From the sequence record OM632671.1: a stretch of 64,000 bases of DNA; one strand, given 5' to 3'. Shown here in pieces: positions 31,690 through 64,000 of the stretch. Origin of the DNA: Escherichia phage BEU50. The stretch's first letter is position 1; each line of letters opens with the position of its first letter. Under the pieces are notes generated by a model. It searched no databases. It had not been told where the DNA came from and saw nothing but the letters and a program-made list of their open reading frames with translations. A program made the translations under genes and the position numbers.

Positions 31690-31722
31690 GATGTACAAGC
31701 ACCAAGGATGGTGATACTATAG
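31690..31722 (+). promoter_or_regulatory. early promoter, PeSL family C (ccaaggatgg core)
   Basis: atgtacaagcaccaaggatggtgaTACTAT; related to the promoters at 48061, 49117 and 50137. Confidence 0.5.
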
Positions 31723-45952: not shown

Positions 45953-45973
45953 GGGGACCTTCGGGTCCCTTTA
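45953..45973 (+). terminator. rho-independent terminator
   Basis: gggacc-ttcg-ggtccc followed by TTT. Confidence 0.6.
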
Positions 45974-45999
45974 GGGGGTTAAAATATTTTTAAAAAGTA

Positions 46000-46029
46000 G
46001 TGTACATGCTTTTAGGATATGTTATTATA
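46000..46029 (+). promoter_or_regulatory. early promoter (GTGTAC -35, TATTAT -10), PeSL family A variant
   Basis: Downstream 5' UTR aaacgaaatgagtaaattggag resembles the 28420 copy. Confidence 0.5.
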
Positions 46030-47531: not shown

Positions 47532-48059
47532 ATGAACGCTAAAGATATTTTCAACCTGGTAAATTATAACGACGGTAAATTTAAATCTGAAGCACAAAGC
47601 AAGTTCTTTAATGACGTTGCTTATGGTAACGAGATTACCGTGGACGGAGGTCAGATTTTCAAATCTCGCTGGAATTGGATTGTTATCATCGATTCAGTTG
47701 GAATTGTGGAAGTCTACAAAAACACTAACAAAAAACGTACATTATTCTGGTCTCGTGAAACTAACGAGCAGTACAAAAAGGATAAAGCATCTCGTTTATC
47801 CAAAGTAACCCAGGAAGATATCGAGTTTATCAAGAAAGATATCGAGATGTACGAAAATTTAATCGCTGAAGACCAGGCAGTACTCGATAAGTTTGATGAA
47901 ATTAAAGCTTCTCGTGAAATCCCTGACTTCATGAAAGAAACAGTAAACGAACGATACGCTCTCACTTCAGAACGTATTGCAAACTATACAAAACAGAAAG
48001 CAGAACGTATTAGTACTCTTCGGAAATTTGAAGAACGTTTAAAGACGGTTCACGCATAA
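47532..48059 (+). CDS. hypothetical protein
   Basis: 175 aa ORF after SD ggagg. Confidence 0.55.
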   Translation: MNAKDIFNLVNYNDGKFKSEAQSKFFNDVAYGNEITVDGGQIFKSRWNWIVIIDSVGIVEVYKNTNKKRTLFWSRETNEQYKKDKASRLSKVTQEDIEFIKKDIEMYENLIAEDQAVLDKFDEIKASREIPDFMKETVNERYALTSERIANYTKQKAERISTLRKFEERLKTVHA

Positions 48060-48060
48060 A

Positions 48061-48086
48061 CGCTTTACCCAAGGACGGGTTATAAT
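48061..48086 (+). promoter_or_regulatory. promoter-like element, degenerate PeSL family C (ccaaggacgg, TATAAT)
   Basis: gctttacccaaggacgggttataat upstream of the ORF at 48122; -35/-10 spacing is irregular. Confidence 0.35.
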
Positions 48087-48121
48087 GGTTTTGAGTTCCA
48101 ATTCAATCTGAGGAAATAGTT

Positions 48122-49117
48122 ATGAGCATTACATCTGATGCGGTAAAACATGAAATTAACGGTTTATGTGCTTCACAGATTAAAGTGTGGTTTAAAGACC
48201 ATAATGATCGCAGAGCACTTAATTATGAGCAAATTGCTATCCAAGTTCATCAATTACTGACTAGTAAATTTGATTTTCATATGCCGTCTGAAATCTATAC
48301 TAATCTGCCGCGAGCGCTTATTAAAGCGTGTAAAGGTTACGGAAAATCAATGGCTGATGGAATCTTCAGCGCGCTGAATAAACTTAACGTTCTGTCGATG
48401 ATTAACTCTAACAACATCCTGCGTAATCTAGGACGTACTGATTTGTTCGGTCGTGAACAGTGTAAAATGCCTTTGAAATGGATTGTTGCTCATCTTAACG
48501 AGAACCAAACACGTTTTATGGCCGTATCAGCACGCTTACAAATGGGTCTAGATCGTCAGATGAACTTTAAAACTCATCCATGTTATTCAGGTTCAACAGA
48601 CTTTTATAAATGTGAGCTTCAAAAGGTTGGTGGCAAAACTGTCTTAGTAGTTCGTGTAACGTTTGAAGGACGACGTCAAGGATATTTTAACCTAATCGGC
48701 TCTGGTCTTAAACATTGTGGATTTATCGACGAAGTTGATATCAAGCGAGACGGCACTGGATATCGTATTGGATATGTTTGTACTCTTAAAGAAGAGATTT
48801 CAGGACCAGCTCCAGGACTAAAAGATGTTAGATATAAAGATGAGCTCGTTGAAGAAATAAAAGAAGTTGAATATGATATCAACCAAGAAGATGCTCTTAA
48901 AGACCTTATTGATGAACTAAACCAAGACGTTATTCCGGTTCAGAAATTTGAATCAAAACATGCTGAGCAAATCAAATACTTTGAAGCTTTGATTAACGAA
49001 CTTAATGTAACTATTCAACAGACCGACGATGAAATCTCACGATTAGCAGGCTTAAACGGTAAAAATAAAACAGAACGAGCTAATCTTATTCAAGTAGTAA
49101 AACTTCTTAAGGAATGA
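48122..49117 (+). CDS. hypothetical protein with C-terminal coiled coil (tandem cassette, 1 of 3)
   Basis: 331 aa; no recognised domain. Confidence 0.6.
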   Translation: MSITSDAVKHEINGLCASQIKVWFKDHNDRRALNYEQIAIQVHQLLTSKFDFHMPSEIYTNLPRALIKACKGYGKSMADGIFSALNKLNVLSMINSNNILRNLGRTDLFGREQCKMPLKWIVAHLNENQTRFMAVSARLQMGLDRQMNFKTHPCYSGSTDFYKCELQKVGGKTVLVVRVTFEGRRQGYFNLIGSGLKHCGFIDEVDIKRDGTGYRIGYVCTLKEEISGPAPGLKDVRYKDELVEEIKEVEYDINQEDALKDLIDELNQDVIPVQKFESKHAEQIKYFEALINELNVTIQQTDDEISRLAGLNGKNKTERANLIQVVKLLKE

Positions 49118-49147
49118 TGTACAACCAAGGATGGTTGGAGTATAATA
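49117..49147 (+). promoter_or_regulatory. early promoter, PeSL family C
   Basis: atgtacaaccaaggatggttggagTATAAT; 27 nt identical to the 50137 copy. Confidence 0.6.
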
Positions 49148-49172
49148 AATTTTTCAACATGAGGAATATAAA

Positions 49173-50132
49173 ATGGCTTTTATTACACGTAGAGAACTTA
49201 TCAAAGAATTTACCTCGAACGCATATACTCCAGGACCTAATCCTATCCGTATGCCTGTAAAGACTCCTGAAGAGATTGAGGAAATCTGTTCATATTATGG
49301 GATTACTTCTCGTAAGTTTACTCAATTTGAATGCGTTACTAACACACCCGTTAAAGAGTTCATTAAAAATGGTGAGTTCAGCCGTTTATTAGCCAAACAG
49401 AAACTTCGTAATTTTTGTATTGGTGGTGAAGGACAATATTTCGCTAAGCAGTTCCGGAATAACCTTAACAATCTGATGGCCATTGCTTCTCGTATTCGTC
49501 CTCAAGCAATTAACATGAAACATTTGAAATATACTTACGATAAGTTAGAAATCATGGTTATCGGTGAGAACGAGTTCACTCTTACGTATAAACCTAAGAA
49601 TGATAACGTTGCTCGTGTATTCCACCAAGCGTTGGAAGTTTTAGGTGATAATATCCACCAGATTAAAGCAATTTATTCTCGTGAGCTTAATATTATCGAC
49701 CCTATCAAGAATAAGGGCCATATCGCTATCCAGGCTCGTGTATCTATTGGTAAAAAGGTTCCTGCGCCATGGTGGCACAAAGACTCTGAATACTATCAAA
49801 ATCTTAAAAAGGAAAATGCATTGTTTGAAGCATCGCTTACTGGGACCCCAATTGAACAGGCCGAAGTCCTAAGTGCTTATTCTACTTCGGGTAAATCAAT
49901 GTTTAAAGGTTTGCCAAATGTGTGCAAACTGTCTGCAGTAAAACTAAATGTTTCTAATGACCTTCTTCCGGCCGAAGATTACCGTTACAATCAAATCAAG
50001 GCCACTATGGACCAACTGTCTGTTGAACTTGACAAAGCACAAGCTAAGCTTCGTGATGCTCAAAGTGTTGTAACGAATCTCCAGTTGCAGTATTCTAAAC
50101 TTTTTAACGCAATGAATGCATTAAAATCATAA
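49173..50132 (+). CDS. hypothetical protein with C-terminal coiled coil (tandem cassette, 2 of 3)
   Basis: 319 aa; no recognised domain. Confidence 0.6.
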   Translation: MAFITRRELIKEFTSNAYTPGPNPIRMPVKTPEEIEEICSYYGITSRKFTQFECVTNTPVKEFIKNGEFSRLLAKQKLRNFCIGGEGQYFAKQFRNNLNNLMAIASRIRPQAINMKHLKYTYDKLEIMVIGENEFTLTYKPKNDNVARVFHQALEVLGDNIHQIKAIYSRELNIIDPIKNKGHIAIQARVSIGKKVPAPWWHKDSEYYQNLKKENALFEASLTGTPIEQAEVLSAYSTSGKSMFKGLPNVCKLSAVKLNVSNDLLPAEDYRYNQIKATMDQLSVELDKAQAKLRDAQSVVTNLQLQYSKLFNAMNALKS

Positions 50133-50136
50133 AATA

Positions 50137-50167
50137 GTTTACAACCAAGGATGGTTGGAGTATAATG
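50137..50167 (+). promoter_or_regulatory. early promoter, PeSL family C
   Basis: GTTTACaaccaaggatggttggagTATAAT. Confidence 0.65.
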
Positions 50168-50194
50168 AATCTATCTTAACGAGAGGAAAATATT

Positions 50195-51145
50195 ATGACA
50201 CGTTCACATTACATTGAATACTTTGCAGGTCTTATCGCTAACGTTCATGCCCAACGTGCTTCTGGTTCATTAGGATTTGATGTTCCACACCGAGATGTAG
50301 TAAGTGGTATTCTTCGAGATTTTGGTACATACATAGGCCAAGAAAATCATATCTGTAAAGATACTCAAAATGCGTATTCTCATTCGTTAGGGACGTTGCT
50401 TCAATGGTTCAAACGTTCTCGTTTATTATCTTCTACTGTAGCTCGCGATAACATTAAAAACTTTATGAAGCCGAGCTTTATTAAATCTGTGACATCTAAA
50501 ACCGATTTGGTTGAATTCACTATTGTTAATGATGTTAAAAAGACTCATTTGGCTGATTGGTTAACTACCATTCCTGAAACTAAATTTGCTGATAAATTTG
50601 CTTGTGAATTCAATAACCAAGTGAATATGCTTTTTAAACATTCTCGTAAATTATTCACAGGCGGCGATGATCGTACAAATAAAGTTCATGCTAAAGATTG
50701 GGTTACTGCAGTGTTCAAACCAACCGGTAATGGTACCGCATCATTATCAATTGATATTCAGGTTCCTTATTATTACTCACGTAATCTCGGCACCATGAAA
50801 GCTGAAGAAATTAAGAAGCACAATAAAACCATTCGTTCGCTGTCTTATAAACTTCGCATGATGTTAAGAATCATGGACGTGGTAGAAATGTATGATGAAA
50901 CCGAAGATAATGGTTCAATGTTATACAGTTCTCGCATTCAAATTAAGTTGAAGAACCCTAACGAGTATAAGCCTAAGCCTATTAAAGAGCCTAAAGCAGA
51001 AAAAGTTGATAACTTAAGAGAAGAACGCGAATATCTCAAATCTCGTCTGAAAGAAGTCGAAGCCCAGATTGCAGAACAAACTAAATCATTAAAAGCTCTG
51101 AATGCAAAAGCGGATGGTTTACGAAATGCCATTGAGGTTTTATAA
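50195..51145 (+). CDS. hypothetical protein with C-terminal coiled coil (tandem cassette, 3 of 3)
   Basis: 316 aa; no recognised domain. Confidence 0.6.
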   Translation: MTRSHYIEYFAGLIANVHAQRASGSLGFDVPHRDVVSGILRDFGTYIGQENHICKDTQNAYSHSLGTLLQWFKRSRLLSSTVARDNIKNFMKPSFIKSVTSKTDLVEFTIVNDVKKTHLADWLTTIPETKFADKFACEFNNQVNMLFKHSRKLFTGGDDRTNKVHAKDWVTAVFKPTGNGTASLSIDIQVPYYYSRNLGTMKAEEIKKHNKTIRSLSYKLRMMLRIMDVVEMYDETEDNGSMLYSSRIQIKLKNPNEYKPKPIKEPKAEKVDNLREEREYLKSRLKEVEAQIAEQTKSLKALNAKADGLRNAIEVL

Positions 51146-51450
51146 TGAAACTACGTCTTTTAGAGGATATTGATATGAGCACTAATCATGACTTGGTTAA
51201 GTTTATTGACGATAGTTCAAAGATTGAATTTGTTCAGCGAGATAAAATCCACGGTGAAGAAGAGTTCGTTCCTCCGGCATGGAACGAAATCATGAAAATG
51301 GTTGAACGACGTGAAAATGCTGCCAAATCGGCAGCAAAACATCCATGTCCGGAATGTGGAACTATCCAAGTCCAACTGGTTAACTGGACCACTGATAACT
51401 TGAAATTGAAATGCCGTAAATGCTTCCACAAATTTGAGAGAACATTATAA
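51145..51450 (+). CDS. hypothetical zinc-ribbon protein
   Basis: CPECG ... CRKC; ATG overlaps the upstream stop. Confidence 0.55.
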   Translation: MKLRLLEDIDMSTNHDLVKFIDDSSKIEFVQRDKIHGEEEFVPPAWNEIMKMVERRENAAKSAAKHPCPECGTIQVQLVNWTTDNLKLKCRKCFHKFERTL

Positions 51451-51863
51451 TGAGATATAGCCTTCGTTGTTTTATTGCAGCTTTAGTTTTTGCCATCATT
51501 CCATTCATTTGGAACAGCCAGAATACTTACATGGAAACTAAAGTAATTCCTGTGGAGGTAGTGGAATTAATTTCAGGTCAATCTACAGGAAAATATTCTA
51601 AATTAGAATTTATTGCCGTCTATAAAGATGAGCAAGGACGAGTTTTTGACAGGCGTGTATCACCGTCGTTTTATACGCTTCTGAATAAAGGTGATACGAT
51701 AGCTATAGAAATTCGTGAGATGGATATCAAACAAACTACTAAAGATAACCTGATTTGGTTCTTTGGTACAGTGTTGATGTTCTCTATCGGTATCACAGGT
51801 TTTATTACATGTATTGTATTTGGTGTTGCATATTTAATCGATGAAAGGAAAAATAATGTTTAA
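51450..51863 (+). CDS. hypothetical membrane protein
   Basis: N- and C-terminal hydrophobic helices. Confidence 0.55.
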   Translation: MRYSLRCFIAALVFAIIPFIWNSQNTYMETKVIPVEVVELISGQSTGKYSKLEFIAVYKDEQGRVFDRRVSPSFYTLLNKGDTIAIEIREMDIKQTTKDNLIWFFGTVLMFSIGITGFITCIVFGVAYLIDERKNNV

Positions 51864-52119
51864 AGTGTACGGGTATGACTCTACTATTCACCGTTGTGTT
51901 TTCTGTGATAATGCGAAAAGATTGCTGACTGTTAAGAAACAGCCATTCGAATTCATTAATGTTATGCCAGAAAAAGGTGTGTTCGATGATGAGAAAATTG
52001 CTGAGCTTCTGGTTAAGCTTGGTCGTGAATCACAAGTCGGATTGACTATGCCTCAAGTGTTTGCTCCTGACGGAAGTCACATTGGTGGATTTGACCAACT
52101 GCGAGAATATTTTAAATGA
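51856..52119 (+). CDS. nrdC: glutaredoxin/thioredoxin NrdC
   Basis: MFKVYGYDSTIHRCVFCDNAKRLLTVKKQPFEFINVMPEKG... near-identical to recalled T4 NrdC; CVFC redox motif. Confidence 0.93.
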   Translation: MFKVYGYDSTIHRCVFCDNAKRLLTVKKQPFEFINVMPEKGVFDDEKIAELLVKLGRESQVGLTMPQVFAPDGSHIGGFDQLREYFK

Positions 52120-63178: not shown

Positions 63179-63193
63179 ACAATTGGATACAAA

Positions 63194-64000
63194 ATGAAAT
63201 CATTTAAACTTAATAGAGTAAAATATAAAAATATAATGTCAGTTGGTCAAAATGGAGTTGACATTCAATTAGATAAAGTCCAAAAGACATTAATCACTGG
63301 TAAAAATGGCGGTGGTAAATCTACGATGTTAGAAGCCATCACTTTTGGACTTTTCGGCAAACCATTTCGTGATGTTAAGAAAGGACAAATCATTAATAGC
63401 ACGAACAAGAAAGAGCTCTTAGTTGAGCTTTGGATGGAATTCGATGATAAAAAATACTTCATTAGACGTGGCCAAAAGCCCAATATTTTCGAAATCTCCG
63501 TTGACGGTGTTCGTCTTGATGAATCTGCCAGCAGTCGTGACTTCCAAGAAGAATTTGAACGTAGCATCGGAATGTCATACGCGTCTTTTAAACAAATCGT
63601 TGTGCTTGGGACGGCAGGGTATACCCCTTTCATGGCTCTTAGCACCCCTGCTCGTAGAAAACTTGTCGAAGACCTTTTAGAAGTCGGCACACTCGCTGAA
63701 ATGGATAAAATCAATAAGTCTCAAGTTCGAGAACTTAATTCCCAGGGACAAGTTCTCGATGCCAAGAAAGATGGTGTTATCCAACAAATTAAGATTTATA
63801 ACGAGAATATCGAACGTCAAAAGAAATTATCTGGTGATAATGTAGCGCGTCTACAGAATATGTATGACGACCTAGCCAAAGAAGCTCGTTCATTAAAAGC
63901 AGAAATCGAAGAAGCTAATGAGCGACTACTTAATATCGTTCTTGATGAAGACCCTACTGAGGCATTCAACAAGATCGGACAAGAAGCATTCTTGATTAAA
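63194..64000 (+). CDS. 46: recombination endonuclease subunit gp46 (Rad50/SbcC-like), partial (continues beyond window end)
   Basis: Walker A GKNGGGKST at the N-terminus; coiled coil begins; open to the window edge. Confidence 0.9.
   Translation, partial: MKSFKLNRVKYKNIMSVGQNGVDIQLDKVQKTLITGKNGGGKSTMLEAITFGLFGKPFRDVKKGQIINSTNKKELLVELWMEFDDKKYFIRRGQKPNIFEISVDGVRLDESASSRDFQEEFERSIGMSYASFKQIVVLGTAGYTPFMALSTPARRKLVEDLLEVGTLAEMDKINKSQVRELNSQGQVLDAKKDGVIQQIKIYNENIERQKKLSGDNVARLQNMYDDLAKEARSLKAEIEEANERLLNIVLDEDPTEAFNKIGQEAFLIK

Follow-up and report, generated by a model that had tools for sequence, protein, structure and literature searches.

The window analysed here is a stretch of 64,000 nucleotides (nt) from Escherichia phage BEU50 (OM632671.1), a T4-type, Mosigvirus-like phage. 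It contains an array of three tandem genes, called A, B and C here, which lie on the + strand at 48122..49117, 49173..50132 and 50195..51145 and encode proteins of 331, 319 and 316 amino acids (aa). An earlier sequence-only reading had described three open reading frames (ORFs) of similar size starting at 48122, 49173 and 50195. These ORFs are real, and their coordinates and lengths were confirmed. Each gene has a Shine-Dalgarno sequence and a promoter. Comparison with annotated T4 showed that the block at 44.6–52.1 kb is colinear with T4 nrdC.11, nrdC.10, nrdC.9, nrdC.8 ... nrdC. The 3.1-kb region holding the array matched 514 phage records, all of them T4-type myoviruses (Straboviridae, mostly Mosigvirus), and the best records were 98–99% identical.

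Gene B belongs to the NrdC.5 family. Its protein matched DUF7235 (PF23882) at full length, with an E value of 8e-123 and 410 bits against a cut-off of 30, and residues 15–318 aligned to profile positions 1–307. The NrdC.5 proteins of T4 and VR7 matched the same profile at full length with 420 bits. The identity of B to T4 NrdC.5 was approximately 25%. B lies downstream of nrdC.6 inside the nrdC.11-to-nrdC block, which matches the position of NrdC.5. Gene A was assigned to the NrdC.6 family (PF26899, phrog_2257), with 30–33% identity to T4-type NrdC.6; the tblastn match to T4T nrdC.6 had 33% identity over 92% of the query (E 7e-27). PF26899 was present in the precomputed annotation of the near-identical cluster representatives of A (P0034–P0037), and the assignment was made through these close homologues, as the local Pfam copy did not contain this model. 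Gene C belongs to the NrdC.3 family, with 56% identity to T4 NrdC.3 (E 1e-120), and PF26897 was found on all 33 homologues of C.

The sequence-only reading had regarded the three proteins as orphans carrying no motif. This view has to be given up, as all three fall into Pfam families and have homologues in 650–740 phage records. Many GenBank records label the nrdC.x genes as thioredoxin. We rejected this label as a propagated annotation error, because A, B, C and their T4 counterparts have no thioredoxin domain.

The NrdC.3, NrdC.4, NrdC.5 and NrdC.6 families are confined to T4-type phages of enterobacteria. In the phage collection, nrdC.6 was found in 741 records, nrdC.3 in 653 and nrdC.4 in 554, and nrdC.5 was found in 548 T4-type and 132 Mosigvirus-type records. 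The exhaustive search with the NrdC.6 family returned only 6 cluster representatives among 1.84 billion proteins and no bridge to the other families. Scans of IMG/VR gave two loci for B and five for C, all of close relatives. The fourth T4 member, NrdC.4, for which no Pfam assignment was found, is absent from the window. The array thus consists of nrdC.6/.5/.4/.3 in T4, nrdC.6/.5/.4 in VR7 and IME281, and nrdC.6/.5/.3 in the window. The NCBIfam search gave no matches, the Rfam search of 44–53 kb gave nothing, and phmmer and profile searches of PDB sequences gave nothing significant. For the model of C, Foldseek searches of BFVD and PDB yielded nothing beyond the sequence orthologue and noise.

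Pairwise BLASTP of A, B and C detected no similarity in any of the three pairs, in line with the earlier statement that their globular parts have no obvious similarity. For B and C, a distant similarity emerged at the level of profiles. Family profiles, built from the window sequences together with those of T4, VR7, IME281, moha and others, were compared with hhalign. NrdC.4 and NrdC.3 matched at 98.2% (E 6e-14, 230 columns), NrdC.5 and NrdC.4 at 87.7% (E 3e-6, 150 columns), and the merged NrdC.3/.4 profile and NrdC.5 at 90.6% (E 1e-6, 308 columns). Because of these profile-profile matches, NrdC.3, NrdC.4 and NrdC.5, and hence B and C, are classed as distant paralogues. The profile link of A (NrdC.6) to these families is no more than suggestive.

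Tails, bodies and allele exchange

The last 45 codons of each gene encode a helical C-terminal tail (A, 48980..49114; B, 49995..50129; C, 51008..51142; all on the + strand). The tails of B and C were strongly heptad-periodic, with 86% of the a/d positions hydrophobic and z scores of 5.5 and 5.7 against shuffles. Residues 275–315 of C were modelled by AlphaFold2 as one long helix, with a predicted local distance difference test score (pLDDT) of 68–81. Both tails show hydrophobic heptad periodicity over at least five heptads, as is required of a coiled-coil helix. The tail of A was weaker (z 2.4). It is broken by G-L-N-G, and its low-confidence model shows three short helices at 281–297, 302–312 and 316–330. 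A heptad-rich C-terminal helix had been claimed for each of the three proteins, which is right for B and C and holds less well for A.

In each of the eight within-family comparisons, conservation was higher in the last 45 residues than in the body. The identities of tail and body were 58% and 28% for A (to T4-type NrdC.6), 40% and 21% for B, and 70% and 53% for C. The tails also look alike by eye across the families (…ERANLIQVVKLLKE, …QYSKLFNAMNALKS, …KADGLRNAIEVL, …NRLDRLEQALQLIK), and the form ...R-x-x-L-x-x-A/V-h-x-h-L-K recurs in all four. In five of the six family pairs, the right-justified tail alignment was the best of 29 registers, above shifts of 7, 14 and 21. Judged from these alignments, a tail common to the families is plausible.

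NrdC.8 (175 aa, 47532–48059) likewise ends in a long, charged, helix-like tail. The ORF running off the end of the window (63179–64000) had a weak match (E 7e-4) to a mixed hidden Markov model (HMM) of the tails, which is probably generic coiled-coil similarity. The reference T4 nrdC.6 gene (275 aa; L003 6650–6790) is apparently tail-less by frameshift, whereas its relatives encode 295 aa and A keeps the tail. The T4 sequence coding for this tail (…SGLSSKAKSEREKLIKIVDLLKS*) sits in the annotated 70-nt 'intergenic' gap before nrdC.5.

The array was more divergent than its surroundings. Between the window and T4, the flanking proteins were 77–91% identical, and A, B and C were 30%, 25% and 56% identical. 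Between the window and moha, the nucleotide identity was 98–100% over the flanks and C, 88% over A and 84% over B. Between the window and ESCO47, a divergent patch extended from the middle of nrdC.8 through A (73%), B was absent and C was 97% identical. The ratio of nonsynonymous to synonymous divergence (omega, Nei-Gojobori) was 0.12–0.22 for A, B and C and 0.03–0.14 for nrdC.10 and nrdC.11, indicating that A, B and C are under purifying selection and functional. The synonymous divergence (dS) was 0.4–1.3 for A and B and about 0.1 for the flanks of the same genome pairs. Because dS is raised relative to the flanks, the divergent versions of A and B appear to be imported alleles and not only fast-evolving genes. 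Positive selection alone was rejected as the source of the high divergence, since dS is raised too and omega is below 1.

The edges of the exchanged segments were located in the comparison of the window with moha. In B, dS dropped from 0.80 in the body to 0 over the last 45 codons. Mismatches end at 50007, 12 nt into the tail, and the next 260 nt, which cover the tail, the promoter and the beginning of C, are identical. The pattern in A is the same. Divergent alleles of A and B have been exchanged among these phages, with boundaries at the tail and the promoter. The sequence-only reading had supposed that N-terminal domains are swapped on a common C-terminal module. The end of the moha patch near the tail and a gene fusion in phage Manna, described below, agree with this, but the similarity of the tails across families is weak.

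Promoter repeats and gene content in relatives

The 27-nt sequence TACAACCAAGGATGGTTGGAGTATAAT is identical at 49120–49146 and 50140–50166, exactly as had been noticed from the sequence. It sits within a 43-nt direct repeat of 86% identity, the copies of which (49113..49155 and 50133..50175, both +) are 1020 nt apart. Exact copies of the element CCAAGGATGG stand at 49125 and 50145, and with at most one mismatch it occurs at six sites in the 64 kb, compared with 2.2 expected. Copy 1 carries a predicted early promoter, TGTACA-N17-TATAAT, at 49118–49146 (10 of 12 consensus positions), with the -35 hexamer abutting the stop codon of A. Copy 2 carries TTTACA-N17-TATAAT at 50138–50166 (11 of 12 positions), and the equivalent site is annotated 'promoter' in GenBank MH243438. 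Both copies fit the early-promoter consensus of the PST/T4 lineage, TTTACW-N17-TAYWAT (PMC4122927). By this match, the repeats, previously termed 'family-C promoters', are identified as sigma-70-like, T4-type early promoters. About a dozen such promoters were found on the + strand of the window, several with AAGGA in the spacer.

The element ccaaggatgg was said to precede each of the three genes. It is exact upstream of B and C, but A has ccaaggaCgg in a different layout. The promoter-like element upstream of A (48062..48086, +), as read from the sequence, consists of GCTTTA, a 13-nt spacer containing ccaaggaCgg, and TATAAT. It does not fit the early consensus that both repeat copies fit, and relatives from Mosigvirus, Gaprivervirus and Dhakavirus keep it at the corresponding junction. 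In T4, a MotA box of the form (a/t)(a/t)(a/t)TGCTT(t/c)A stands about 12 bp before a -10 TAnnnT. In the element that precedes A, the sequence is aaaCGCTTTA, with C for T at the first box position and 13 nt to TATAAT, and its layout resembles that of a MotA-box middle promoter. The TGCTT Mot box is also given in PMC4122927.

A small hairpin may form within the -35/-10 spacer of both repeat copies (49122–49137 and 50142–50157). It has a stem of 5–6 bp and the loop AGGA, and it was also found at 48067–48080 and 31692–31720 in the window and in junction promoters of the loci L003, L005, L018 and L019. The stem variants were AACCA/TGGTT, CCACA/TGTGG, AGCCA/TGGCT and TACCA/TGGTA. Over ten distinct junction promoters from four genera, 86.7% of the cells were paired, compared with 63% in the shuffles, none of which (0 of 500) reached this value. 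Four of the six pairs had changed on both sides, and the slid controls were low. The predicted stability was modest (-6.9 kcal/mol, z about -2.2 to -2.7). Because the sequences were hand-selected and the structure was derived from the same sequences, we treat the covarying hairpin as a lead rather than a result.

Comparison with relatives showed that B behaves as an excisable cassette. The phage p000v is close to the window in nucleotide identity (A 97.9%, C 96.6%, nrdC.8 99.1%), and exactly 1020 nt are missing from its array. Its A-to-C junction equals the A–B junction of the window through the 27-nt repeat and the B–C junction of the window thereafter. ESCO47 has the same hybrid junction. 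The junction without B was found in 21 of the 153 Mosigvirus-type records, and the other 132 carry B. The proposal of a cassette array bounded by promoter repeats was largely borne out. Relatives do not simply carry the same three genes unchanged, as B is absent in these 21 records and the alleles of A and B diverge.

In moha, 24 nt of the 3′-end of B are duplicated upstream of the B promoter, and B is flanked by longer duplicated repeats. A 66-codon ORF, which looks hydrophobic and membrane-like, is inserted after A in the same phage. Small ORFs of 56–71 codons lie between nrdC.6 and nrdC.5 in moha (L016 5699–5899), VR7 (L005 6674–6889) and IME281 (L018 6799–6969); the window has none of them.

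Losses also occur at short homologies inside the genes. In Manna, the body of NrdC.6 is fused to the tail of NrdC.4 at a microhomology of 12–21 nt (…GATGATGAAATT); the fusion is in frame and intact and was seen in 1 of 502 records. Pinarejo has an internal deletion of nrdC.6 at a microhomology of approximately 1 nt, and in ACG-C40 nrdC.5 is joined to nrdC.3 at a microhomology of 9 nt. Both of these products are out of frame. The nrdC.5 of RB69 is frameshifted (L017 6001–7025) and was matched in three pieces, with identity only up to residue 237. In an IMG/VR phage (L011 4910–5942), nrdC.4 is split into two ORFs of 193 and 158 aa.

The array is flanked upstream by a conserved nrdC.8 homologue (47532..48059, +), which has 83% aa identity to T4 NrdC.8 and is present in 745 phage records. 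Downstream lies the nrdC.2 homologue (51145..51450, +; 51% identity to T4 NrdC.2), whose start codon overlaps the stop codon of C. The glutaredoxin-like nrdC is located at 51841–52119. An nrdC.7-like membrane ORF (51450–51863) is situated between nrdC.2 and nrdC in the window, while its T4 position is between nrdC.8 and nrdC.6. The window has no nrdC.1, the Septu inhibitor of T4.

Possible role of the array

When T4 nrdC.5 is expressed, a deletion phage regains plating on E. coli that carries Dsr1, a sirtuin defence from ECOR17 (Srikant, Guegler and Laub 2022, PMC9391042). Other proteins of the same block act against host systems. NrdC.1 inhibits Septu (bioRxiv 10.1101/2025.11.20.689424), Gp49.2 inhibits OLD (PMC13096335), and Pin is annotated as a Lon inhibitor. 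We found no paper on the function of NrdC.3, NrdC.4 or NrdC.6, nor any that mentions the Pfam accessions.

Our preferred reading, held with moderate confidence, is that the array encodes early-expressed, paralogous counter-defence proteins and that A, B and C are the Mosigvirus alleles of T4 nrdC.6, nrdC.5 and nrdC.3. By analogy with T4 NrdC.5, B would neutralise Dsr1-type sirtuin NADases, and A and C may neutralise other host anti-phage systems. The genes would form part of a counter-defence island upstream of nrdC, each transcribed from its own promoter early in infection. Each protein would combine a fast-diverging alpha+beta body of approximately 270 residues with a slower-evolving, amphipathic C-terminal helix of approximately 45 residues. 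We propose that target recognition resides in the variable body. The tail would have a constant role, for which self-association as a coiled coil is the simplest candidate. The conserved tail-coding DNA and the promoter repeats may serve as short stretches of homology through which the recombination system of the phage deletes, inserts or swaps genes or bodies. Recombination at repeats and tails would then lead to different repertoires among related phages.

Several points weigh against this reading. Experimental support is limited to T4 NrdC.5, to which B is only approximately 25% identical, and the anti-Dsr1 activity of B is therefore inferred. The merged NrdC.3/.4/.5 profile matched NrdC.6 at only 61% (E 8e-5, 69 columns). 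HMMs of the last 45 residues that were built with one family left out failed to find that family, and for this reason a sequence-homologous common tail is not claimed. Positive selection on A, B and C was not demonstrated, omega being below 1 overall (Nei-Gojobori). The AlphaFold2 models had low confidence (C, pLDDT 55 with 25 sequences; A, pLDDT 46 with 5 sequences) and were not used for fold assignment, because the family alignments were too shallow. No solved-structure or predicted-fold relative was found in the PDB and BFVD searches, and dividing the proteins into a recognition body and an oligomerising tail is therefore put forward as an inference.

The low-confidence models of A and C have a parallel order of secondary structure. 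Six N-terminal helices stand at nearly equal positions and are followed by a beta-hairpin from residue 162, and then by a helix, a second hairpin, a linker and the C-terminal helices.

Other explanations were weighed against the counter-defence reading. The sequence-only reading favoured unrelated N-terminal effector domains swapped onto a common C-terminal module, which docks on one shared partner. Such a partner could be a hub of the host or a protein of the phage itself. Such docking would agree with a similar tail in all four families, the right-justified register in five of six pairs, the intact in-frame fusion in Manna and the allele exchange boundaries at the tail start. The bodies of NrdC.3, NrdC.4 and NrdC.5 are homologous, however, and not unrelated, and the omitted family was missed by the tail HMMs. 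The fusion in Manna is a single case, the analysis brought up no candidate for the partner, and self-association explains the heptad helix more simply. We consider shared docking unlikely. It is somewhat more improbable still that the genes encode host-takeover or metabolic accessory proteins unrelated to immunity, which vary through relaxed constraint in a recombination-prone region. Against such a role stand the specific anti-Dsr1 phenotype of T4 NrdC.5, the only family member to have been tested, and the counter-defence factors encoded next to the array. Patchy presence among near-identical phages is, in addition, what host-range genes typically show. An accessory role would nevertheless suit the omega values below 1 with no demonstrated positive selection, as well as the frequent decay (pseudogenes in Pinarejo, ACG-C40, RB69, L011 and the T4 reference nrdC.6). 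It would also suit the finding of no defence-related domain in the Pfam, PHROG and NCBIfam searches.

The frameshifted or truncated copies in some relatives could also be taken to mean that the ORFs are non-functional, that is, chance open frames or decaying remnants between repeated promoters. This is effectively refuted by the conservation and the purifying selection, and we give it hardly any weight. Full-length copies exist in 550–740 phage records with omega of 0.12–0.22, each gene has a Shine-Dalgarno sequence and a promoter, and the proteins belong to curated Pfam and PHROG families.

A bolder form of the counter-defence reading is offered only tentatively. NrdC.3, NrdC.4, NrdC.5 and NrdC.6 may constitute one modular platform, in which a constant coiled-coil tail for oligomerisation or docking is joined to an exchangeable recognition body, and each paralogue or allele disarms a different host immune protein (e.g., Dsr1-type NADases). 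The tail DNA and the hairpin promoter would act as the recombination joint. If this is true, the array would be a counterpart, in phages, to the modular diversification of immune receptors.

In phage therapy, T4-type phages are leading candidates, and which hosts they can infect depends on the counter-defence genes among their accessory genes. The block comprises the known anti-Dsr1 family and two to three uncharacterised relatives. If these are one paralogous, recombining family, NrdC.3, NrdC.4 and NrdC.6 would be candidate inhibitors of other host defences. The array is also a sequence-level example of promoter repeats reshuffling repertoires between near-identical phages, where one gene is carried by 132 of the 153 genomes and missing from the other 21.

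Comparison with known systems

The closest functional reference for B is T4 NrdC.5, the anti-Dsr1 protein. Both match the Pfam family at full length, lie between nrdC.6 and nrdC.4/.3, carry the heptad tail and have signals for early expression, and they are similar in size. They differ in sequence, with approximately 25% identity overall, 21% in the body and 40% in the tail, and the anti-Dsr1 activity is reported for the T4 protein only. The early proteins NrdC.6 and NrdC.3 of T4 are the orthologues of A and C, respectively, by sequence and synteny, and T4 NrdC.4 is a paralogue of C. DSAD1, a phage inhibitor of DSR2, blocks a defence-associated sirtuin by direct binding (PMC10973363, PMC10981675) and serves here as an analogy only. 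No sequence relationship between DSAD1 and NrdC.5 was detected. The target of DSAD1 is DSR2 and not Dsr1.

A canonical unit resembling the repeated promoter cassettes of T4-type phages (PeSL/PmSL) was seen upstream of nrdC.10 at 45964–46028. It has a GC-rich hairpin with a T run (45964–45980) and an early promoter, TGTACA-N16-TATTAT (46001–46028).

The shuffling of modules within hyperplastic regions of T4-type genomes has been ascribed to the PeSL/PmSL cassettes (Arbiol et al. 2010, PMC2839356; Comeau et al. 2014, PMC4122927). Like them, the array lies in a hyperplastic region and has repeated early promoters between its accessory genes, with a Shine-Dalgarno sequence and an ATG after each promoter. 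The consensus TTTACW-N17-TAYWAT is shared, and neighbouring copies recombine so that the gene between them is deleted or inserted. Insertions and deletions in relatives with the crossover inside the repeated element, which mark a PeSL, were found in the p000v and ESCO47 junctions and in the 21 of 153 records. No terminator-like site was found on the + strand at the A, B and C junctions, and canonical PeSLs with upstream terminators were rejected for these junctions. In place of the upstream terminator stem-loop, the array promoters have a putative small covarying hairpin within the -35/-10 spacer. A further difference is that conserved tail-coding DNA lengthens the region of homology in the array. 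The biology of the array extends this published work and does not represent a new kind of system.

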